From contig RXIG01000002.1 in NCBI GenBank assembly GCA_004212155.1, positions 47,993 to 111,992 on the forward strand: a stretch of DNA of 64,000 nucleotides, read 5' to 3'. Shown in pieces: positions 1-22,325 of the stretch (within the stretch, counting starts at the first letter, position 1; every line of letters starts with the position of its first letter). The notes under the pieces are model-generated. The model was not told where the DNA came from, did not search any database, and saw nothing but the letters and a program-made list of their open reading frames with translations. This stretch comes from an archaeon (lineage in GTDB: Archaea > Methanobacteriota_B > Thermococci > Methanofastidiosales > NM3). A program made the position numbers and the translations under genes.

Positions 1-633
1 GAACTCGGATTCAGCAAGGACGAGGCCAAGGGCATCGAGGACGTCTACCAGGGCAACATGTACCTCAACATGACGCGCGGCGTTGTGCACATCGGAGAGG
101 TCCGCGAGCTTATAATGGAGGCGTTCCACTCCGTGATGGACAAGGGTATCGTCGCCGGTGAGCCCACGACAAAGCTCTTAGTCAAGCTCATGGACACGAA
201 ACTTCACGAGGACGCGATACACCGCGGTCCCTCGCAGGTCATCCCTGCCGTGCGCCAGGCGCTCTTTGCGGCCATCCTCTCGGCACAGCCGGTGCTCGAG
301 GAGCCGCTGCAAAAACTCTTCGTCACGGCCCCACAAGACTTCATGGGTTCTGTCACGAAGCTGATTCAGTCGCGTCGCGGCCAGATCCTGGACATGACGC
401 AGGAGGGAGAGCTTACCACCGTCATCGCCAAGACACCTGTAGCGGAGATGTTCGGATTCACAGGGGACATCCGCGGGTCCACGGAGGGCCGCGCGCTCTG
501 GACCACCGAACAGCTCGGTTATGAGCCACTTCCGCGAGAACTCCAGGAGCCCATCGTCCGCGAGATACGCATGCGCAAAGGCATGAAGCCCGAGCCACCA
601 AAGGCGGCCGACTATCAGAATCCGCAGGGGTAG
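1..633 (+). CDS. fusA: Translation elongation factor aEF-2, C-terminal part (5' end outside window)
   Basis: Frame open from base 1 (ELGFSKDEAKGIEDVYQGN...); diphthamide loop LHEDAIHRGPSQ; domain V SRRGQI...PVAEMFGF...IRGSTEGRA. Confidence 0.97.
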   Translation, partial: ELGFSKDEAKGIEDVYQGNMYLNMTRGVVHIGEVRELIMEAFHSVMDKGIVAGEPTTKLLVKLMDTKLHEDAIHRGPSQVIPAVRQALFAAILSAQPVLEEPLQKLFVTAPQDFMGSVTKLIQSRRGQILDMTQEGELTTVIAKTPVAEMFGFTGDIRGSTEGRALWTTEQLGYEPLPRELQEPIVREIRMRKGMKPEPPKAADYQNPQG

Positions 634-1439
634 GTGCAGTGCTCACGATAGTGGCATGCACCACACTTCTCTTTTTTTATCTCTACTTCTTTAGGTTCTT
701 CTCGTTGTTCTACGATACGTTTCACTTCATCAAGCAGCGCTAGCACGTACTCCTTATGCTCATCATCGATGAGAACTGGTACCTGCCTGTCGATAGCGGT
801 GTACTCGATGATGCCAAACGGTACGGGGCGGCCGCGCTGGCGCTCGAGGAGGAGCGCGTAGGCGGCAAGCTGGACCTGCTGTCCCGGCGTGGGCTCGTCA
901 TGGTATGCGCCCGTCTTGTAATCGACAGGCACAGGGCCGCTGCGCCGCTCATCGATCTTGTCGATGCGCCCGCGCAGCCCGAGAGGTCCGTCCTCGATCA
1001 TCTCCTCGGCACGCTGATCGGGCAGCACGATGTCGATCGCCGTTCGCACGTCGGTTGCAGCCATGGCACGTTTGATACGTGCTGCACGCACGATGCTTTC
1101 CAGCTTGAGCTCCTGTTTCAAAAACGACATGAGCTCGATGGGGTCGATGCCTGCCTTCTCGAGCCGAGGTCGGAACTTGAGCACGGCGTTCTTTGCACAC
1201 TGATACCCGTTTGAATAGATGATCGACTGGATCTCAGAAAAGGGAGTCGATTCTTCGAGTGCATTGGTGAGCACGATGCGCTCCCGCGCTTCCCGATCCT
1301 CGCGCACCTTGTGCAACACAGTCCCGCGCACCATTGCGGGAGTGGGCGGCACCTTTATGCGCCGCACCTTCTTGAGGTAGACGAGGTGGGGGCACCAGAC
1401 ATAGTCGCAGAGGTCAGTTACCGTTATCATGATACTCAC
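615..1439 (-). CDS. cas4: Cas4-like PD-(D/E)XK nuclease with Fe-S staple (solo, no CRISPR locus)
   Basis: N-terminal DYVWCP; RGTVLH; LRGRIDKI; VPVDYKTG; QLAAYALL; C-terminal CGACHYREHC. Confidence 0.88.
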   Translation of the reverse strand: MSIMITVTDLCDYVWCPHLVYLKKVRRIKVPPTPAMVRGTVLHKVREDREARERIVLTNALEESTPFSEIQSIIYSNGYQCAKNAVLKFRPRLEKAGIDPIELMSFLKQELKLESIVRAARIKRAMAATDVRTAIDIVLPDQRAEEMIEDGPLGLRGRIDKIDERRSGPVPVDYKTGAYHDEPTPGQQVQLAAYALLLERQRGRPVPFGIIEYTAIDRQVPVLIDDEHKEYVLALLDEVKRIVEQREEPKEVEIKKEKCGACHYREHCTYPCGF

Positions 1440-2220
1440 ATGTGGAGACGTAGTGGCACGTGTCGCACGACGATGTGTTCGGAGAGAACTGCGAGCACTG
1501 TGCGATCATCGAGCGGAAGCTCTTGACCTGTTCCTTGGTCCCTTCGTCGATGGGTATGTAAAAGGAGCGGTCACATGCGGTGAGATAGGCCGCCGATAGA
1601 GGCACCTCCTCGCCCAGTTCGAACGAGACCAAAAGCGCGTTCGCCTTGAGCGCCATCGTGAGAAGTTCCTCCTGACGCGATGTAGGGAGCATCCAGGGTA
1701 TGAACTGTATGGGAACCGGTCCATGGGGCATGCGGGCAATGAGTGACACCGTCCCGACAATGCGGTGCCGGTAGTCGACGATGCGGCGCGCGACCATCTC
1801 GGGCGGATGGGCGACAATGTTTGCAAACTCGTCGCCACATGCGCCGCTGCGCCGGATGCACTCTCGGCAGGCCTGTTCATGAACCATGCGTTCCCGAGAG
1901 AGCTCGTGGGCGACACGGCGTTCGACAGCCTCGTAGTCGATGTGGTCCAGGTGGCGCGAAGCGCGCGATATGGCATGGGCCACGGCTACGTCGGTGAGTG
2001 CGTCGTATGCCTCCGTCACACTGTCTGGTCCCGTCGCGTGCATTGAAAGCTCATCACGCTCGTGCGCATAGAATGCTTCGCGCGCGCTGGTGGCAATCAG
2101 CTGCCATATCCGGTCATCGCTCGGGTCGGGGTACGTTCGTTTGATTGTCGAGAGGTAGTATCTGTATGGGCACGCACAAAACTGCAGCACCGCCTCGTTG
2201 GATAGATACCGCCTTGCCAC
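1414..2220 (-). CDS. Catalytically degenerate Cas4-like paralog
   Basis: Colinear with the neighbouring Cas4 (QFCACPYRYYL ... CDTCHYVSTC), but nuclease motifs are replaced by GTVSLI / VPIQFIP / ALKANALL. Confidence 0.75.
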   Translation of the reverse strand: MARRYLSNEAVLQFCACPYRYYLSTIKRTYPDPSDDRIWQLIATSAREAFYAHERDELSMHATGPDSVTEAYDALTDVAVAHAISRASRHLDHIDYEAVERRVAHELSRERMVHEQACRECIRRSGACGDEFANIVAHPPEMVARRIVDYRHRIVGTVSLIARMPHGPVPIQFIPWMLPTSRQEELLTMALKANALLVSFELGEEVPLSAAYLTACDRSFYIPIDEGTKEQVKSFRSMIAQCSQFSPNTSSCDTCHYVSTCEYHDNGN

Positions 2221-3051
2221 TCAATCACCGTCTATCTCCAGTGACATGTCCACGGCCGTCACCGAATGCGTGAGCGAGCCCATCGAGACGATGTCGACGC
2301 CCGTGTCGGCGTAGTCTGCTATGGTGTCTTTGGTTATCATGCCCGATGCCTCGAAGAGCGCCTTGTCGTGCCCCTCTTCCCTGAGGGTCGCGATGACCGT
2401 GCGGATCTCGCCAGGGGTCATGTTGTCCAGCATGATGATGTCTGCACCCGCAAGTGCAGCCTCACGCGCCTGGTCAAGCGTCTCTGCCTCGACCTCTATT
2501 CGTTTCGAAAATGAGAATTCTCTTGCCTGTCGCACCGCCTCTGTGATGCCCATTAGCTTGATGTGATTATCCTTGATGAGGAACATGTCGTCGAGGCGCC
2601 ATCGGTGGGGGTCGCCCCCTCCCGCTATGATCGCCATCTTGTCGAGCTGCGGAAAGAGCGTCTTTCGCGTGCCAGCGACCTTCACGTGAGGGCCTGCCAG
2701 ATCGACACAGGTGCGCGTTGCGGTGGTAATGCCGCTCATGTGCTGTAGCACGTTGAGCACGGTGCGTTCGGCCGTGAGGATGTCCCTGATGTCGCCTTCA
2801 AGCGTGCATAGCGTCGTTCCTTCGTTGACAAACGATCCGTCGCTTACACAGAGCTGCGTGCGAACGTTGCATGTCGCAAGCAGGTCGCAAGCGACCCCCA
2901 GGCCGGAGATGTATGCGTCTTGTTTCACGCGTATGCTTGCACGCACCTCCCTGGGAGCGAGAAGCTCGGTGGTGATGTCGCCATATCCGATGTCGTTGTC
3001 CAGAAGCGTTCGCAGGGCCCCTATATCCATGTGTATCAATGGCCCTTGCAC
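2221..3051 (-). CDS. nadC: Nicotinate-nucleotide pyrophosphorylase (carboxylating)
   Basis: DIGYGDITT, AERTVLN, GTRKT, HRWRL, IKDNH, IMLDN, EASG, SMGSLTH; start may be the ATG at 3030. Confidence 0.96.
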   Translation of the reverse strand: MQGPLIHMDIGALRTLLDNDIGYGDITTELLAPREVRASIRVKQDAYISGLGVACDLLATCNVRTQLCVSDGSFVNEGTTLCTLEGDIRDILTAERTVLNVLQHMSGITTATRTCVDLAGPHVKVAGTRKTLFPQLDKMAIIAGGGDPHRWRLDDMFLIKDNHIKLMGITEAVRQAREFSFSKRIEVEAETLDQAREAALAGADIIMLDNMTPGEIRTVIATLREEGHDKALFEASGMITKDTIADYADTGVDIVSMGSLTHSVTAVDMSLEIDGD

Positions 3052-3069
3052 GATATAACGATTTCGGTC

Positions 3070-5319
3070 CTATCCCGTCAATGCCCCGTAGTCGATCTCA
3101 AGAATGTAGACCTTGTTGCGGGGATTTGACGTGTCCTCGTAGATGACTGTAAAGGCGTCGTTATTGAAGAACTTGTTCCAATTGACCGGCACGCCAAATC
3201 CGCCGCCGCGATAGGCTCCAAGCCATCCGCGCGTGGCCATGTTGTCAGAGATGTAGACGTGGGTGATCCCGTAGCGCTCCCCTATCGTTTTTGTGAGCCC
3301 GGGGTCTGATGTTTTGTAGAAGTCGTAGATGTCGTCCTGGACCTGTGCTGGCGCCTTGATGTAGTCGTTGAAGTCGATGTTGCGCAGCGGGAACAGTCCT
3401 CCGATGAGCGAACGGCCTGCGCACACACCGCTAATCATCTGTCCCGTATAGTAGTCGGCCACGATGAGGTCGTCGCGTTCTGAATTCGCCTTGAACCACA
3501 CGGCTGCGTCGTAGTCCTCGATGAGGACGCCCGAGTTTGTGATCTTGGTGTCCATGTCGTAGTCGGGCACAGAGAATCCTGTGAGTGTGAAGTAGCCGAT
3601 GCATGCGAGAAATATCATGAATCCATAGGCGAACGCGCGCTTGTGCTTGCGCAGTTCCATGATAAACAGCGACGAGAGCAAAGCGAACGGTTGTGCGAGG
3701 AAGATATAGAAACGATACCCCTCGAGGGGCCGCACCGTCGTCTCCCACATGAGCCCGTATTCACGCACGATGGAGAGGATGTTCTCACTGAATACCTCAT
3801 AGAGCATGAAGATCGTCCAGAGGATGAGAAATGTCTCGAAGGCATTGTTGAGTATGAAGCTTGTGCTCTTCTTGTCGGTCTGGTAGGAGAACAGCAGTGG
3901 TATGAATATGATGGCGAGCACGCCAAGCAGCGCGCGCGTGGTGAGGAAACGCTCTGCGATGTCACGCAGCCCTATGGCAGCTGAAGTGTTCGTCGCTATG
4001 AGCGAGGTCGCAACGACCAGCAACACAAACGATGCGAACGTCAACAGCGGGGGTGCCCCGTGCCAGCGCCGCGCCAGGGGTGCGCTAATGATGGGGATGG
4101 CAAGAAACACGAACAGGACGACGACGAGGCTTACGATCGCAAGATAGCTTGGAGAAAACGAGCTCTGGTAGAAGATGAACGTCTTCGTCCAGGCGCCGAT
4201 GTTCCCTGCGTTATGCGTGAAGAATGTGGCTATGGCGCCTATGAGCAGGGCATCGATCATGGCGACGATGAGCGCGAATGCGCGCGATGTCTTGAACGCC
4301 GTCACGAAGAGGAACGCGGCTATGGCGGCAAGCATCGAGACGACAGGCGTCGTGACGGTCTTGCCCGCGAATATGCCGCACAAGGCTGAGAGTATGATCG
4401 TGAGCACGGCGATGTGCCATGGATTTGACGTCGTGTCCCTGTTGACATATGAGAGACGGTCGACGAGAAGGTAGCCGAATCCGATGAATCCGAGTATCAT
4501 GAACGGTGCGCCGTAGGCGGTGAGGTGTGAGCCGAACGTCTGGAGCAGCGTGGATGTCGTGATGATAAATATCCACCAGTAAAACAGGAAGTCGGGCAGC
4601 CACCACCAGCTCGAGATGATAAGGCTCACCACGAGGGCGATGGCGGTGAACTTGATCTCATTGCGCACGGGACGCCTGTCCAACTTGAGCGCTATGAGGT
4701 AGAGCAGCATGAGGCCCACCGTAATGAAAAAGGAGAGATGGGTGAGGAAGTTGATCCCAAGCAGCACCCCTATCCCGAGCGCCGCGTTGCGCGAGAACCC
4801 GTATCTCTGCCGTGACAGGTAGACGAGCACAACGGGGATGACCATGAGCGTGATCACCTGCGGGTCGGCTATGGCGCTGTACAGTATGAACGAAGGTGTG
4901 ATGGCGAGGATGATGAGTGCGATGCGTGCTACCATCTTGTCGTACCATTCACGCACAAGGAAGTAGAAAGGAATGGGGGTGAACGCCTCGATGAAAGGCA
5001 CGATGCGGGTCATGACGGTGGGAAGGTCCATGCCCGAGATGACCGAGAGGCCTGCGAACCCTACCATCGAGAGGGGCGGATACCAGAGCGGGACATCGCC
5101 GTAGGGGATGTATCGAATGTCTGGTATGGGCAATGAATGGTAGTCAAGGATGTGTTGAGACATGCAGATCCTATACCAGACGTCGCCGAGGAAGACGGGA
5201 AGATGGCTGTCCATCTCGAGCTTCGGGGCCAGGCGTATGAAGACGCCAAATCCGTAAATTATCAGGATAAGGAGGATATCGTGGTCTTTGAGCCATTGTA
5301 AGAGGGATTTGCCTTTCAT
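3070..5319 (-). CDS. Multi-pass membrane glycosyltransferase, GT-C fold (STT3/AglB- or PMT-like)
   Basis: Luminal loop GDVWYR...YPP, many TM helices, C-terminal soluble domain DYDAAVWFKANS..DLIVADYYTG..YGITHVY. Confidence 0.65.
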   Translation of the reverse strand: MKGKSLLQWLKDHDILLILIIYGFGVFIRLAPKLEMDSHLPVFLGDVWYRICMSQHILDYHSLPIPDIRYIPYGDVPLWYPPLSMVGFAGLSVISGMDLPTVMTRIVPFIEAFTPIPFYFLVREWYDKMVARIALIILAITPSFILYSAIADPQVITLMVIPVVLVYLSRQRYGFSRNAALGIGVLLGINFLTHLSFFITVGLMLLYLIALKLDRRPVRNEIKFTAIALVVSLIISSWWWLPDFLFYWWIFIITTSTLLQTFGSHLTAYGAPFMILGFIGFGYLLVDRLSYVNRDTTSNPWHIAVLTIILSALCGIFAGKTVTTPVVSMLAAIAAFLFVTAFKTSRAFALIVAMIDALLIGAIATFFTHNAGNIGAWTKTFIFYQSSFSPSYLAIVSLVVVLFVFLAIPIISAPLARRWHGAPPLLTFASFVLLVVATSLIATNTSAAIGLRDIAERFLTTRALLGVLAIIFIPLLFSYQTDKKSTSFILNNAFETFLILWTIFMLYEVFSENILSIVREYGLMWETTVRPLEGYRFYIFLAQPFALLSSLFIMELRKHKRAFAYGFMIFLACIGYFTLTGFSVPDYDMDTKITNSGVLIEDYDAAVWFKANSERDDLIVADYYTGQMISGVCAGRSLIGGLFPLRNIDFNDYIKAPAQVQDDIYDFYKTSDPGLTKTIGERYGITHVYISDNMATRGWLGAYRGGGFGVPVNWNKFFNNDAFTVIYEDTSNPRNKVYILEIDYGALTG

Positions 5320-5333
5320 GCTTTGTTCCGTCC

Positions 5334-7478
5334 TTACTGTGTTGACAGGTCGTCTATGTTGGTGGCATAGATGTCCGGGTTGTCCTCTGCCGTTCCCGTC
5401 TGCATGCCGTCAAGGTCGTTTCGCCAATCGACCCACACGATGTATGTGGCATATACCTCAGGGCGTTCCTGATCGAGGACTGATGTCGTTACCTGGCGAA
5501 TCGTGCCGCTCTCGATGTCGTTGAGGTAGATGTCCTTGTTGCCGTTGCGGTCGTCCTCCCAGACGATGTACTGTCCGTACACCGACGGATTGATCTGATT
5601 GGTGGGGCTGCTTGTCACCTGGGTCTGCACATTCGTTGTCAGATTGTACCTGAAGATGTCCCAGTTGCCGTTTCGATTGTCCTCCCAGACGACAGTATCG
5701 CCATGGATCGATGGATTGAACTTGATCGACCGTCCGCTTGTGATCGTGCTTTCGTTACCCGTGGCGATGTCGTAGCTAAAGATGTTGAACTCCCCGAACC
5801 TGTTGTCGAGCCATATGATCGTATCATCGTAGATGCGCGGAGAGGTCTGGAACGGTTGCAGCTCGGGGTCGTCCATGGTGATGCGCTCCTCTTTTCCGTC
5901 CTCGATGTCGTACATGTAGATGTCCGAGTTGCCGTGGCGGTCGTCCTCCCAGACGATGACCGAGCCGTAGATGTCGGGATTCGTCTGATTGAACGGGTCG
6001 TTTGTGATACGCGAGGTCGCTCCGCTCTCGATGTCGTAGAGATAGATGTCCCAGTTGCCGTTTCGATTGTCCTCCCAGACGACCTTGCCCTGCCATGTGC
6101 GAGGATGGCGCTGATCGTTAGGGTTGTCGCTTAGGTTTACCTCGTCCGACGAATCGAGGTATTTGATGAAGATGTCCCATTTGCCATCCCTGTTGTCTTC
6201 CCACAGGAAAAACGCCCCTGCTCCCTCCATCTCCCCCATCACGGGGTTGTCCTGGTCTGCGAGGCTGCGCGTCACGGGAAATGTCAGGTCTCCCGTCGGT
6301 TCTATGGCCGTCTCGTCAAGCGCATAGACGGTAAGCGCAGTTATGACGAAAATGCCGATGAAGAGGGTGAGTATGCCTCGCCCACCGATGGGCAATCGCC
6401 TCTGTTTGCTTGTTTCCCTCTTTATCTTCGAGCGCTGGATGAGCGAGACACCGATGCCCATCACGGAGAGGAATCCGATCACGAGCAGCGAGAACACCAT
6501 CTCGTTGCGTGTTATCTCGTTTTGGGTAAATGATGTGTACTGATATATGGTGCCAAAGATGCCACATGCCAGGATGAAGACGATGAGATGGTTCCATATA
6601 TAGTTGAATCCCCGCGTGTATGCGCTGATGACGTTGCCGGCAAGCGCCGCGAGGATGCCTATGTAGAGCAGCGGGAACGAACCATCGAAGAAGACGGTGA
6701 AGACGTAACGCACCGATTCCCAGTTGAGGTAGGGCACCATGCCCCATTTGATGTTCTGGAATCCGTTGTAGGCGCCATACGCTGCGATGACGAGCGCTAC
6801 GCTGTAGGCGATGAGCTTGATCTTTCTGGGCGTTATGCGCTCCCTGACGTAGTCGTCGACGCCAAACCCCTTGGCAAAGAGGTAGATGCCGACGATAGAG
6901 AACGTCGAGAACCACCCATACTTGGTGAACTCGGGAAAGAGGTAGGTGAACGCGTAGATCAGGATAATGATGCCGGGCAGCCCGAGAAGCAGTCCCGATA
7001 CCTTGCGGTCCTCCATCATACGCTTGAGATAGCGGTGGAGGATGAAATAGGTGTCCTCCAGGCTCTCGCTTTGTTGCACCGTGACCCGTTCGATGGACAC
7101 GAGTGACAACTTCGATTGGAGTATGGGAAGGATGTTCTCGTCCTCCCTGCCGTCGGTCACCAGGATGGTGTTGCGCGTGTCATAGAGCGAGATGATCGTG
7201 TCGAGCTGCTCGGATATGACCATGTCTGATGTGACACCGACCTGCTTGTCGCCCGTCACACATGCAACATATACCTCGCGCCCCTCGGCCTCGAGCTGGT
7301 CGTAGAGCTTGATGCAGTGGAAAAGGACGTTGGTGTCAGATTCCGTCGGGTCCTTCACTCCCAGGGCAAGCGCAGTATCCATAAGTGCCTTTTTTCCCAG
7401 AATAGGGCCATTTATGCCTGTTTTATCTCCAATATCGTTGTCTCTGTCGACACCGAGAACGAGAATTTTTTTTTCCAC
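5334..7478 (-). CDS. DUF373-family membrane protein fused to a beta-propeller repeat domain
   Basis: N-terminal LVLGVDRDNDIGDK..DPTESDTN..VTDGRED..VQQSE (DUF373); C-terminal repeats of consensus VWEDxRNGNWDIYxYD. Confidence 0.8.
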   Translation of the reverse strand: MEKKILVLGVDRDNDIGDKTGINGPILGKKALMDTALALGVKDPTESDTNVLFHCIKLYDQLEAEGREVYVACVTGDKQVGVTSDMVISEQLDTIISLYDTRNTILVTDGREDENILPILQSKLSLVSIERVTVQQSESLEDTYFILHRYLKRMMEDRKVSGLLLGLPGIIILIYAFTYLFPEFTKYGWFSTFSIVGIYLFAKGFGVDDYVRERITPRKIKLIAYSVALVIAAYGAYNGFQNIKWGMVPYLNWESVRYVFTVFFDGSFPLLYIGILAALAGNVISAYTRGFNYIWNHLIVFILACGIFGTIYQYTSFTQNEITRNEMVFSLLVIGFLSVMGIGVSLIQRSKIKRETSKQRRLPIGGRGILTLFIGIFVITALTVYALDETAIEPTGDLTFPVTRSLADQDNPVMGEMEGAGAFFLWEDNRDGKWDIFIKYLDSSDEVNLSDNPNDQRHPRTWQGKVVWEDNRNGNWDIYLYDIESGATSRITNDPFNQTNPDIYGSVIVWEDDRHGNSDIYMYDIEDGKEERITMDDPELQPFQTSPRIYDDTIIWLDNRFGEFNIFSYDIATGNESTITSGRSIKFNPSIHGDTVVWEDNRNGNWDIFRYNLTTNVQTQVTSSPTNQINPSVYGQYIVWEDDRNGNKDIYLNDIESGTIRQVTTSVLDQERPEVYATYIVWVDWRNDLDGMQTGTAEDNPDIYATNIDDLSTQ
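5654..6083. repeat. Intragenic repeats of the beta-propeller coding region, including a 40-nt perfect duplicate
   Basis: agatgtcccagttgccgtttcgattgtcctcccagacgac at 5654-5693 and 6044-6083. Confidence 0.85.
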
Positions 7479-18207: not shown

Positions 18208-18318
18208 ATCGTACGACACATGAAACATGTCCCACAAAAAAAGAGGCGCAACTTAGTTAACTATTTAAATTTGCACAAGCAAACATAATGTATTACATCT
18301 ATTACATCGGTGATATGA

Positions 18319-18846
18319 TTGCCACGATTGACAAATATAAAGAGTGCCGGTAAGGACATCAGCCGTTATGTTGGTTCCATGTACCGGAAGGAAAAGAAGG
18401 AGGAGAAAAAGATCGGCCTGCTCGTTGATGGGCCCAACATCCTCCGAAGAGAGTTTGCCATTGATTTGGAGGACATCCGCAGGATCCTCGATGACCTTGG
18501 GGATATCCGTATCGCCAAGGTATTCCTAAATCAGTTTGCCTCCCAGGGCCTTATTGAGGCCATATCCAATCAGGGATTCGATGTCATCATCGTTACCGGC
18601 GACACCGACGTGCGCATCGGCGTCGATGCGATGGAGGTCATCTTCATGGACAGCATCAACACAGTTGCGCTTGCAACGCGCGATGCCGACTTCCTCCCCA
18701 TACTCATCAAGGCCAAGGAACACGGAAAGGAGACCATCGTCATCGGTGCCGACCCTGGGTTTTCCGTGGCATTGCAAAACGCCGCAGATTATGTTATCAA
18801 GATGGGTGGCGAAGAAGTGAAGCGTGACGACGAGGTCTACTTGTAA
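18319..18846 (+). CDS. NYN-domain protein (TIGR00288 family)
   Basis: LLVDGPNIL, GDTDV, ATRDADFLP, GFSVALQNAAD. Confidence 0.9.
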   Translation: MPRLTNIKSAGKDISRYVGSMYRKEKKEEKKIGLLVDGPNILRREFAIDLEDIRRILDDLGDIRIAKVFLNQFASQGLIEAISNQGFDVIIVTGDTDVRIGVDAMEVIFMDSINTVALATRDADFLPILIKAKEHGKETIVIGADPGFSVALQNAADYVIKMGGEEVKRDDEVYL

Positions 18847-18860
18847 TCCCCTTTTCCCAT

Positions 18861-20756
<1,896 letters not shown>

Positions 20757-20837
20757 TCACCGTCAGAAGGTATGGTATTACCACTGAATCGTAGTTTAAA
20801 AATATTGCTATTCGTCAGGTTCGCGGATAAAATTCCA

Positions 20838-22142
20838 TTATTCGTTCCAAACGTGTTCGCGCTTGTCGATGATGCGTTTGGCTTTGTGGGTCGCGCGCGG
20901 CAGCGTGTCCTCGTCGTAGACCACTACCCGCGCGGAGACGCCGAGCGCAGCTTTGATGTCGTGTTGGATCTTTTGTTCGAGCAGGGCGAGATTGCCTTTG
21001 AATCTATCGACGTGTTCCGTTTCCACCGTAAGCGAATCAAGGTGATTTTCCCGTGTCACGACGAGCCGGTACTCGCCGGTAAGGTCCTCGTTCGAGCGAA
21101 TGATCGATTCGATTGCAGAGGGCATCACGTTGACGCCCTTGATGATGAGCATGTCGTCGACACGTCCGTGAATGCCTGTCAGCCGCAGGTGTGTCCTTCC
21201 GCACGAGCACCGGTCCGTCTCGTACGTGACGATGTCTCCCGTCCTGAATCGTATGAGGGGCCGTGCCTCCTTCCTGAGCGTCGTAAGGTACATCTCCCCC
21301 TTTTCGCCCTCTGCGACATGCTCGTTCGTTTCGGGATCGATCACCTCGAGGAGCATGTGGTCCTCCGCAAGGTGGAGGCCCTCCTTGGCAGTGCATTCAC
21401 CCGCGCAGGCGCCGAAGATATCCGAGATACCGTAATAGTCGTGCACGCTGGCGTTCCAGAGCGATTCGATGCGGCGTCTGGTCGTCTCGATCGACCCTCC
21501 CGGCTCACCTGCGACAAAGAGGCGTTTGATCGACGATGCGGCAGGGTCGAATCCCATCTTCTCCGCCGTCTCGCCGAGATACCACGCATACGAGGGCGTG
21601 GTCCAGATGACGGTAGGCTTGAACTGATCGATGATCTTTATGAGACGTTCTGAGGGTATCGTGCCCGCATGGATGGAGAGCGCCCCGACCTTCTGGGCAC
21701 CAAGCACACATGGTCCTCCCACAAAGAGTGAGAAGTTGAGCGCATGACAGTACCTGTCTGTGTTGCGAAGGCCCGAGGAATAGAAGAGGCGTGCCTCGTA
21801 ATCGATCCATTCATCGAAGTCGCGCTGGGTGAACGGCGATGCTGTGGGCGCCCCCGTTGATCCAGATGATGCGGAGATGTAGACGACCTTCTCCTCCGGT
21901 ACGCACAGCATCCTTCCAAGCGGTGGCATGGCTTCCTGGTCCTTTCGGATGTCATCCTTGTCGCACACAGGGAGTCGCGCTATGTCCTGCATCGTGCGCA
22001 CATCCCTGCACTCCTTGGGTATGTGGCGCGCATAATATGGGCTTTGTTTCACTGCATGGCGTACCGTTGCCCGCACCTTCTTGAGTTGGTAGTCCTCGAG
22101 TTCCTCGCGTGGCATCGTCTCTATAGGGTCCCAGTATGTCAT
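20838..22142 (-). CDS. paaK: Phenylacetate-CoA ligase family protein
   Basis: SSGSTG, TPSYA, AGEPG, YGISDI, RFRTGD, GRVDDMLIIKGVNV. Confidence 0.9.
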   Translation of the reverse strand: MTYWDPIETMPREELEDYQLKKVRATVRHAVKQSPYYARHIPKECRDVRTMQDIARLPVCDKDDIRKDQEAMPPLGRMLCVPEEKVVYISASSGSTGAPTASPFTQRDFDEWIDYEARLFYSSGLRNTDRYCHALNFSLFVGGPCVLGAQKVGALSIHAGTIPSERLIKIIDQFKPTVIWTTPSYAWYLGETAEKMGFDPAASSIKRLFVAGEPGGSIETTRRRIESLWNASVHDYYGISDIFGACAGECTAKEGLHLAEDHMLLEVIDPETNEHVAEGEKGEMYLTTLRKEARPLIRFRTGDIVTYETDRCSCGRTHLRLTGIHGRVDDMLIIKGVNVMPSAIESIIRSNEDLTGEYRLVVTRENHLDSLTVETEHVDRFKGNLALLEQKIQHDIKAALGVSARVVVYDEDTLPRATHKAKRIIDKREHVWNE

Positions 22143-22325
22143 CTTGTGATTCACTCCCAGTAGCACAAAGAATTGAAGTAGTATTAATATAGTTTATTGT
22201 ATAAAATATTCTTATTATACTTCTTTATTTCCTATTGGTACTTAAGGCTCCTTCGCCGAATCAGATGGGGCGTATGGCATCGGGACCAACCAATAACCAT
22301 ATTAGCGCGCATGTAGAATAACCCC

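Follow-up and report, generated by a model that had tools for sequence, protein, structure and literature searches.

Can a protein of the Cas4 family lose its whole nuclease site and still be kept by the cell, and if so, what is it kept for? The question is raised by two adjacent genes in a stretch of 64,000 nucleotides (nt; contig RXIG01000002.1, positions 47,993 to 111,992 of the forward strand, hereafter the window) from an archaeon of the order Methanofastidiosales. The upstream Cas4-like gene, U (1414..2220, minus strand), encodes 268 amino acids (aa) and the downstream one, D (615..1439, minus strand), 274. A first reading of the letters of the window (the original prediction) had taken them for a Cas4 tandem working apart from CRISPR, with one active nuclease and one catalytically dead paralog. 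From the list of open reading frames (ORFs), the motifs and an AlphaFold2 model, U is a Cas4-fold paralog that keeps the Fe-S cysteines and is predicted to be nuclease-dead; from Pfam, NCBIfam and the motifs, D is an intact solo-Cas4 and a nuclease by family. Below, G000 denotes the window's genome (assembly of 1.49 Mb, 89.8% complete), f1 its family (seven genomes including G000), f2 to f4 other families of the same order, f5 a sister order and g7 a genus of f4.

The active sites were compared in one alignment (D numbering) between 13 sequences of the U clade, here called the dead clade, and 42 catalytically equipped relatives. Of ten columns with 79-100% conservation in the 42 active relatives (G39, H43, E145, D160, D/E173, K175, Q190, Y194, E199 and Y213), the 13 dead-clade sequences retain none. 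The signature of U at the D, D/E, K, Q and Y columns reads S, Q, I, A, N, and its H43 and E145 positions are replaced as well. Motif II (G-x-I-D) has given way to GTVSL (1741..1755; all features of U and D given here lie on the minus strand), with Ser159 in the place of the catalytic Asp; this column is Asp in 42/42 active-family sequences and Ser (54%), Pro or Thr in the dead clade. Motif III, (D/E)xK, is replaced by IQFIPW (1693..1710; Gln172, Ile174). Its Lys column, invariant in the active family, is variable in the dead clade, and its Glu/Asp column is Gln in 62% of dead-clade sequences. ALKAN (1639..1653; Ala190, Asn194) stands where QxxxY is expected; Gln and Tyr of that motif are found in 95% and 79% of the active family, and Asn194 in 69% of the dead clade. 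The four staple cysteines are kept: Cys17 of the CP motif, the first of them (2170..2172), and the C-terminal CxxCxxxxxC (1438..1467; Cys252, Cys255 and Cys261) are invariant in 13/13 dead-clade sequences. By means of these four cysteines U would probably bind an Fe-S cluster.

The dead clade also has conserved residues of its own, namely Y21, D77, A81, I84, S85, R146, V148, D149, H152, R153, Q172, N194, K229 and K233. Some fall in the helical insert of the protein and others in the former active-site strands. R146, V148, D149, H152 and R153 belong to RRIVDYRHR (1762..1788), a basic strand and turn whose conservation is confined to the dead clade: these positions are 77-92% conserved there and are E/S/L/G in the active family. 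Because the strands of the former active site carry new conserved residues, the site appears to have been remodelled under constraint and not to have decayed at random.

U scores above no Pfam or NCBIfam cut-off (TIGR00372, 12.1 bits with a cut-off of 65; PDDEXK_1, 10.9 bits with a cut-off of 22). U and D are nevertheless colinear, with 65/266 identical residues (24%; BLASTP E 4e-11). AlphaFold2 gave a U model with a predicted local distance difference test score (pLDDT) of 93.9 and a predicted template modelling score of 0.90 from an 82-row alignment. Foldseek found 13 matches to this model in the PDB at E<=0.001, all of them ACE1, Cas4, Dna2 or AdnA, and the top one was ACE1 (E 2.4e-5). In pairwise comparison the VIA Z score was 16.8 for Cas4 (7mi4_A; root-mean-square deviation 2.7, 180 residues aligned), 14.2 for AdnA, 13.5 for Dna2, 13.0 for ACE1, 12.1 for AddB and 7.0-8.3 for the nuclease-dead domain of RecC. 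A feature search of the ESM Atlas returned only generic PD-(D/E)XK/Cas4/Dna2 clusters and clusters without a name. The model has a helical insert (about residues 35-136; 1813..2118) that separates the N-terminal Cys from the nuclease core; DSSP assigns it to helices H35-61, H65-86, H96-125 and H129-136. The D model (pLDDT 94.5) has matching helices (H34-60, H67-88, H100-128 and H131-138), and the order of helices and strands is identical in the two models, three-long-helix insert included. By this confident model U is predicted to adopt the Cas4 / PD-(D/E)XK fold.

D itself is, by its sequence, a bona fide Cas4-family nuclease standing outside any cas context. It scores 70.1 bits with Pfam Cas_Cas4 (cut-off 22.7), 60.5 bits with PDDEXK_1, 46.1 bits with Pfam Csa1 (cut-off 27) and 98.1 bits with NCBIfam TIGR00372 (cut-off 65). 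With the NCBIfam Csa1 equivalog TIGR01896 it reaches 44.5 bits where 103.35 are needed, and there is no cas context for such an assignment either. Sequence and alignment place motif II as GRID at 960..971 (Asp160), motif III as DYKTG at 909..923 (Asp173, Lys175) and QLAAY at 858..872 (Gln190, Tyr194); together with H43 the RecB-type motifs are complete, and D carries all invariant columns of the order-wide ortholog alignment (A4). The Fe-S staple pattern is also present, with Cys16 at 1392-1394 and Cys259, Cys262 and Cys268 in the C-terminal CxxCxxxxxC at 636..665. Since the same form of about 265 aa runs through the order and through distant archaea (Woesearchaeota, Pacearchaeota, Nanoarchaeum equitans, Methanobacteriaceae and Methanosarcinales), D is, judged by its sequence, the ortholog in this order of the solo-Cas4 that archaea inherit vertically, as the part of the survey used here describes it (Hudaiberdiev et al., PMC5704561). 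Solo-Cas4 is defined as standing outside characterised contexts and as mostly vertically inherited; D has no cas neighbours and forms one clade with the single-copy genes of f3 and f4 (SH-aLRT, the Shimodaira-Hasegawa-like approximate likelihood ratio test, 94).

Next, we examined how the two genes are distributed. In 60 genomes of relatives (f1 6, f2 6, f3 17, f4 4, f5 27), with each protein as query, U had matches in 6/6 genomes of f1, 6/6 of f2, 0/17 of f3, 1/4 of f4 and 0/27 of f5, and D in 4/6, 6/6, 16/17, 4/4 and 0/27, respectively. D orthologs are thus present in 30/33 genomes of the order besides G000; in G000 itself no further copy of U or D was found. A profile search found U in 7/7 f1 genomes with no stop or frameshift; D is intact in 4/7 (G000, G001, G004 and G006). 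The gene order nadC-U-D is kept in f1 and f2, with the same tight packing in f2, and the stop/start overlap of U and D is kept wherever D exists in both families. In genus g7 nadC is followed by a single Cas4-like copy, and in f3 a single copy follows a UbiA-like gene. D-type genes stand without any U in 16/17 f3 genomes and in g7. A profile scan of species genomes with the A4 alignment showed tandems in 8 of the 80 best loci; two are of the f1 type, and six resemble f2 in that their D copy shares 30-35% identity with the D of the window. One further locus with two matches (L104) is unrelated. Relatives in the species-genome collection are named Methanofastidiosum, Theionarchaea or 'Thermococci archaeon'. 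A word-indexed homolog search with U gave 2 proteins only and was replaced by an exhaustive profile search: in a library of 1.84 billion proteins the dead-clade profile found 240 at E<=0.001 and 9 at E<=1e-30. The dead signature is present in 10 library representatives (P0001-P0009 and P0011), and the frame is intact in about 10 library clusters at 50% identity.

The U of G005 is split over two contig ends by an assembly gap (L015 and L018; contigs C27 and C117), with the C-terminal CxxCxxxxxC present. Several differences between the ends, within an overlap of about 90 codons, point to strain heterogeneity in the G005 bin.

A quickly searched tree of 62 rows, without the truncated U of G005, joins the 13 dead sequences in one clade (SH-aLRT 100). 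The active U copies lie in a polytomy beside the dead branch. The residues D, E and K are still in place in the U-type copies of f2 and G009, whose signatures are CDEKQS and CDEKQY; the U copies of f2 pass Pfam Cas_Cas4 at 58.7 bits. As the dead clade is monophyletic and the f2 U copies are catalytically equipped, the inactivation took place once, in the f1 ancestor.

To the side of the dead clade, about 16 of the listed library representatives are substituted at one or more of the D/E/K columns with their cysteines kept (P0063, P0071, P0100, P0123, P0127, P0130 and P0148 are examples, from an automatic alignment). Loss of catalysis with retention of the cluster may therefore recur in the Cas4-like family.

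Selection on U was estimated from the ratio of nonsynonymous to synonymous substitution rates (dN/dS) between G000 and its congener G001. By NG86 the values were 0.130 for U, 0.093 for D and 0.087 for nadC, and by YN00 they were 0.149, 0.105 and 0.074, respectively; they come from the only independent close pair (L019 is identical to G001 and L020 to G004). The deeper pairs G004-G006 and G003-G005 are saturated, with dS of 1-3 or undefined. Between genera, U copies share 27-33% identity, D copies 49-52%, nadC copies 53-60% and the C-termini of the elongation-factor-2-like (EF-2-like) gene beyond D 79-84%. U evolves about twice as fast as its neighbours yet is under purifying selection.

We concluded that U, as far as sequence and model can tell, is a true pseudo-nuclease of Cas4 fold that is maintained by selection. 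The descriptive part of the original prediction is borne out by these data. The ORF list and the stop/start coordinates give two co-oriented, overlapping genes of 268 and 274 aa directly after nadC; the strings GRID, DYKTG and QLAAY in D and GTVSL, QFIPW and ALKAN in U were found where it had put them, the latter in an open frame with all four staple cysteines; and the colinearity of the pair and its common long helical insertion are seen in the BLASTP alignment and in the matching secondary structure of the models. The computational checks among those that it had proposed also came out in its favor: in the profile search D lies above the Cas4 cut-offs and U below all, structure prediction gave a Cas4 fold for U, the dead copy is shared by the whole of f1, and dN/dS is 0.13-0.15 for this copy as compared with 0.09-0.10 for D. 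It had also named beforehand what would speak against it (a dead copy confined to one genome with dN/dS near 1, no Cas4 fold, or no interaction with the active copy), and none of these was found.

The interaction was approached by complex prediction. With D as chain 1 and U as its partner, the interface score ipSAE was 0.69 in 3/3 runs, and the best of 3 controls reached 0.25. This mark is reached by 116/157 solved complexes and by 2/215 mismatched pairs, counts that hold only roughly here because the prediction used its own alignments. The U-D runs agree in at least 88% of contacts, with a partner pLDDT of at least 84. The predicted interface has a pseudo-two-fold form in which the same beta-hairpin (about residues 207-223) of both chains meets, aided by the third long helix, and the contacts are symmetric (221-221, 208-208, 219-219 and 223-223). 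A U-D dimer in G000 is plausible on this model.

We propose the following explanation. U would be a non-catalytic member of the archaeal solo-Cas4 family, derived from an old second paralog lineage that appears still catalytically equipped in a sister family of the order, there too between nadC and D. The whole metal-binding and catalytic site would have been lost once, in the f1 ancestor, with the four cysteines, the helical insert and a fold of the Cas4/Dna2/AddB type left in place. U would be made together with D from the packed nadC-U-D string and would most likely bind DNA (ends, flaps or single strands) and not cleave it. In G000 its most likely partner is D, contacted through the edge beta-hairpin (about residues 207-223 in each protein); such a pseudo-two-fold dimer, with one live and one dead site, might cleave only one strand or one end of the bound substrate. 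Where D is absent, U may act alone or as a homodimer. Its role may lie in repair, recombination or defence. Taken as a whole, the reading in which U binds DNA or serves a partner without cleaving, is not tied to D and likely pairs with D in G000 is in our judgement about evenly balanced between right and wrong.

In a public run labelled as RNA (metatranscriptomic), near-identical contigs span 795-1144, in D, with 1 difference and 1591-2112, in U, with 0 differences. The nadC part is uncovered, as are several bins within U and within D, gaps from which nothing follows; an operon transcript cannot be shown by contigs. We take this as a weak hint that U and D are expressed. Half or more of the sampled words of window 500-3100 occur in three public runs. 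These are metagenomes of oil fields or crude oil, they come from two studies, and one of them may be where the DNA of the window was obtained. Subsurface metagenome X6 contains a diverged strain (95-99% alike).

Several observations weigh against the proposed explanation. Three f1 genomes lack an intact D: in G002 (96% complete) 160 nt separate an intact U from the EF-2-like gene, and a D-type or Cas4 gene was not found anywhere in that genome; in G005 (91% complete) D is deleted, with about 115 nt from the end of U to the EF-2-like gene; in G003 (93% complete) D is a decayed pseudogene (residues 4-62 with a stop, and a C-terminal trace) next to an intact U. U shows 40% identity (nadC 64%) in a D-less genus as compared with 39% (nadC 65%) in a D-containing genus. 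Within the dead clade, conservation is lower at the columns of the predicted interface (mean top-residue fraction 0.35, n=29) than outside it (0.48, n=239). The predictor cannot separate U-D from U-U or D-D, and close cousins of true partners also pass it. The RNA library may contain DNA. Finally, against the loss of cleavage itself, the solo-Cas4 of Methanosarcina mazei is reported to have nuclease activity even though its RecB motif is said to be absent, according to the part of that paper used here (PMC12501428). Since U is present in 7/7 and D intact in only 4/7 f1 genomes, the selected function of U cannot strictly depend on D, and since U diverges no faster without D, the constraint on U does not visibly depend on D either. 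Of the active/pseudo-nuclease heteromer in the original prediction, the complex itself thus gains from a score well above the controls, and its obligate form does not fit the 3/7 f1 genomes that keep U without an intact D.

The same observations favor the strongest rival, in which U works alone as an exapted non-cutting Fe-S binder of DNA ends, flaps or damage, or as a redox-sensitive regulator, and its adjacency to D is a trace of the duplication. The uneven retention of U and D in f1, the equal divergence of U with and without D, an interface that is not preferentially conserved and the new dead-clade-specific residues in the helical insert and former active-site strands all agree with a solitary function, and there is a precedent in TP1 of Thermoproteus tenax virus 1 (TTV1), a Cas4 derivative turned DNA binder in the excerpt at hand (PMC4625639). 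Set against this are the complex prediction, which beat its controls (0.69 versus 0.25), the stop/start overlap with D that is kept wherever D exists (f1 and f2) and a neighbourhood in which no independent partner or target gene for U is visible. We consider a solitary U possible and somewhat doubtful.

A second rival makes U a stoichiometric inhibitor or regulator of D, antitoxin-like, that occupies the dimer interface or the substrate of D. U-D contact is predicted, f1 has U-only genomes (3/7) and no D-only ones (0/7), an asymmetry to be expected if D were tolerated only with U, and overexpression of M. mazei Solo-Cas4 is reported to slow growth in the portion of the source used (PMC12501428). 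The wider distribution argues against a toxin-antidote relation, in which the toxin never occurs without its antidote: D-type orthologs live without U in 16/17 f3 genomes and in g7, so that they have no intrinsic need of one. Both copies look active in f2, and U stays conserved after the loss of D, unlike what is expected of an antidote. We find this proposal unlikely.

Could U still be a nuclease with a re-built site, for example one made of D149, H152, R153 and Q172? The residues in the former active-site strands are indeed conserved and different, not random, and the M. mazei enzyme is reported to be active without a recognisable RecB motif, as far as the consulted part of that report goes (PMC12501428). 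However, the metal ligands known from Cas4 structures (equivalents of H43, D160 and E173) and the catalytic Lys are all gone together, the alignment shows no substitute acidic pair, and no nuclease family model exceeds its cut-off for U, which makes a re-built site very unlikely. That U is a decaying relic without a function of its own, as its rate (about twice that of D and nadC) and its scores below every family cut-off might suggest, is scarcely credible and already contradicted by the dN/dS of 0.13-0.15, by a frame free of stops and frameshifts in 7/7 genomes and about 10 clusters at 50% identity, by the four Cys and about a dozen other (near-)invariant columns, and by the D pseudogene of G003, which is what true decay looks like here.

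We turn now to the locus in which U lies. The packed nadC-U-D string is headed by nadC (quinolinate phosphoribosyltransferase; 2221..3051, minus strand; Pfam QRPTase_C 169.3 bits, QRPTase_N 69.6 bits), whose TGA stop abuts the GTG start of U with zero gap. The overlap of U and D measures 26 nt; it shrinks to 17 nt with the ATG at 1430 as the start of D, the likelier choice because it agrees with the N-termini of D orthologs. The string is bounded by the 3' end of a convergent gene (1..633, plus strand) that we take to be EF-2-like from reading its sequence, without a family model; a full-length homolog of 734-737 aa occupies the equivalent position in relatives. Flags for a 'TGA/TAA inside' the U/D loci had raised the possibility of recoding, which was ruled out, as the matches overrun gene ends into the overlapping neighbour and the ORFs are open. 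A promoter and terminator scan gave one promoter-like and one terminator-like site, fewer than in shuffled sequence, and its models of sigma-70-type sites are not applicable to an archaeon.

Further upstream, directly 5' of nadC, a 749-aa polytopic membrane protein (3070-5319, minus strand) has a weak match to the PMT_2 glycosyltransferase family (37.7 bits), and a PMT_2-like protein takes this place at every f1 locus seen. It is preceded by a 714-aa protein (5334-7478, minus strand) with an N-terminal DUF373 domain (290 bits), which is conserved upstream in relatives; its C-terminal half is made up of 'WEDNRNGNWDIY'-type repeats and may therefore be a beta-propeller. In f1, f2 and g7 (the window; L008, L010-L014, L023 and L024) a Cas4-like gene comes directly after nadC, with stop and start touching or overlapping; NAD synthesis and the nuclease have no evident functional link. 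In f2 the string is flanked by a small NTPase_1 P-loop protein (160 bits) upstream and an NYN-domain protein (87 bits) downstream (L010, 3-545 and 3116-3613; equivalents in L011-L014); these two flanking genes are not at the locus of the window.

The original prediction had noted that neither cas1 nor a CRISPR array is nearby, and it was right on both counts. Cas1 (PF01867) was not found in the G000 assembly, and no CRISPR-like tandem array was found in the window, where the only repeat row has a period of 15 and 2.5 copies. No cas2 or helicase gene was seen near the pair in the ORF list for 1-6000 or by Pfam on the two upstream neighbours, and no family-model search was aimed at either. D therefore lacks the Cas1 and the array of a CRISPR-associated Cas4, which is recognised by a cas1/cas2 module and an array. 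Over the order, Cas1 is present in 12/34 genomes irrespective of U and D, as compared with 30/33 for D-type genes, and the neighbour of a D-type gene is nadC or a UbiA-like gene, never a cas gene. A CRISPR role for U and D was rejected on these grounds (no Cas1 in G000, no array in the window and a Cas1 distribution independent of both genes).

Within f1, Cas1 matches occur only in G002 and G003, two of the three genomes that lost D, numbers far too small for a claim of replacement; in G003 a canonical short Cas4 (70.8 bits) adjoins Cas1. Genomes of f2 hold U, D and Cas1 together. With regard to repair, NurA was not found in the 89.8%-complete G000. On another contig of the same genome (C24, about 18253-22171, outside the window) two adjacent ORFs of 875 and 991 aa resemble a bacterial-type AddAB/AdnAB helicase-nuclease pair, with PDDEXK_1 on both and UvrD_C also on the second, and homologous PDDEXK_1 matches are present in 5/5 f1 genomes searched.

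The locus bears on the cellular role of solo-Cas4, which is present in most archaea, and on the reason why the nucleases Cas4, AddB, Dna2 and Exo5 carry an Fe-S cluster. It amounts to a natural experiment in which the catalytic site is gone and the fold, the cysteines and purifying selection are kept, so that functions of the cluster and of DNA binding are separated from cleavage. Active pairs (f2), active/dead pairs (f1) and dead-only genomes form a comparative set with clear predictions for the biochemistry of recombinant proteins; as the organisms are uncultured, its reach is in-vitro and heterologous work. We put forward tentatively, and would not yet bet on it, that in f1 the dead copy is the component that matters, a full-length, Fe-S-keeping Cas4 fold for non-cleaving recognition of DNA ends or damage, possibly redox-sensitive, and that the active partner is dispensable and was repeatedly lost. 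If so, U would be the first cellular case of a Cas4 exapted as a non-enzymatic Fe-S protein that binds DNA, and it would offer a natural separation-of-function allele by which the role of the cluster in Cas4, AddB and Dna2 nucleases could be told apart from catalysis.

How does the pair compare with known systems? In the literature searched there is no description of a cellular, full-length dead Cas4 paralog that retains its cysteines, nor of an active/dead tandem. The statement of the original prediction that the arrangement was not known to be described thus holds within that literature; the nearby precedents are Cas4 with Csa1, TP1 of TTV1 and M. mazei Solo-Cas4. Another parallel is RecC, whose dead nuclease domain steers a DNA strand next to a paralogous nuclease that is active. 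RecC of RecBCD and the nuclease domains of AddB and AdnA have the same PD-(D/E)XK/Cas4-type fold as U. They differ in being domains of large helicase-nuclease machines, whereas U and D are small separate genes without a helicase.

Among the stand-alone proteins, the archaeal survey of solo-Cas4 (COG1468/PF01930 outside cas loci) states, in the part drawn on here, that all Cas4 proteins keep the catalytic motifs (PMC5704561). D resembles the proteins described there in being stand-alone, having four Cys, following order-level taxonomy and occurring in genomes without Cas1, and U differs from them by the loss of the catalytic motifs. Two distinct solo-Cas4 are mentioned for some DPANN genomes, with no tandem active/dead pair in that part of the survey (PMC5704561). 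The same source describes the type I-A Cas4 and Csa1 (Cas4') as paralogs in one operon that are thought to form a complex with distinct roles. U-D is alike in bringing two paralogous Cas4-family genes together, and D also matches Pfam Csa1, as noted above; the type I-A pair lies in a CRISPR locus beside cas1 and cas2, with catalytic motifs in each protein, whereas U-D has no cas context and one dead copy.

The Argonaute-associated Cas4 family enzyme ACE1, the top structural match of U, is described in the available part of its report as an active single-stranded DNA endonuclease that partners a prokaryotic Argonaute (pAgo; PMC12094033; PDB 9iab and 9iac). Like U it has about 270 aa and a Cas4 core with extra helices, and it carries a 4Fe-4S cluster; it differs in being active and in its pAgo partner, no Argonaute gene being found beside U and D. 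M. mazei Solo-Cas4, the product of a single gene, has a [4Fe-4S] cluster and is reported to be an active nuclease of high oligomeric order whose RecB motif is said to be absent, again as given in part of the source (PMC12501428). Compared by description only, it shares with U the stand-alone archaeal Cas4 fold and the missing RecB motif.

A counterpart in loss of catalysis is TP1, the nucleocapsid protein of TTV1, which according to the portion of the paper at hand is a Cas4 derivative that lost its catalytic residues and was exapted for DNA binding (PMC4625639). TP1 and U are both derivatives of Cas4 that lack catalytic residues, and the role of TP1 is non-catalytic DNA binding. In the same portion TP1 is viral and a split N-terminal fragment whose Fe-S cluster was lost as its Cys were divided over two genes, whereas U is cellular and full-length and retains all four cysteines.

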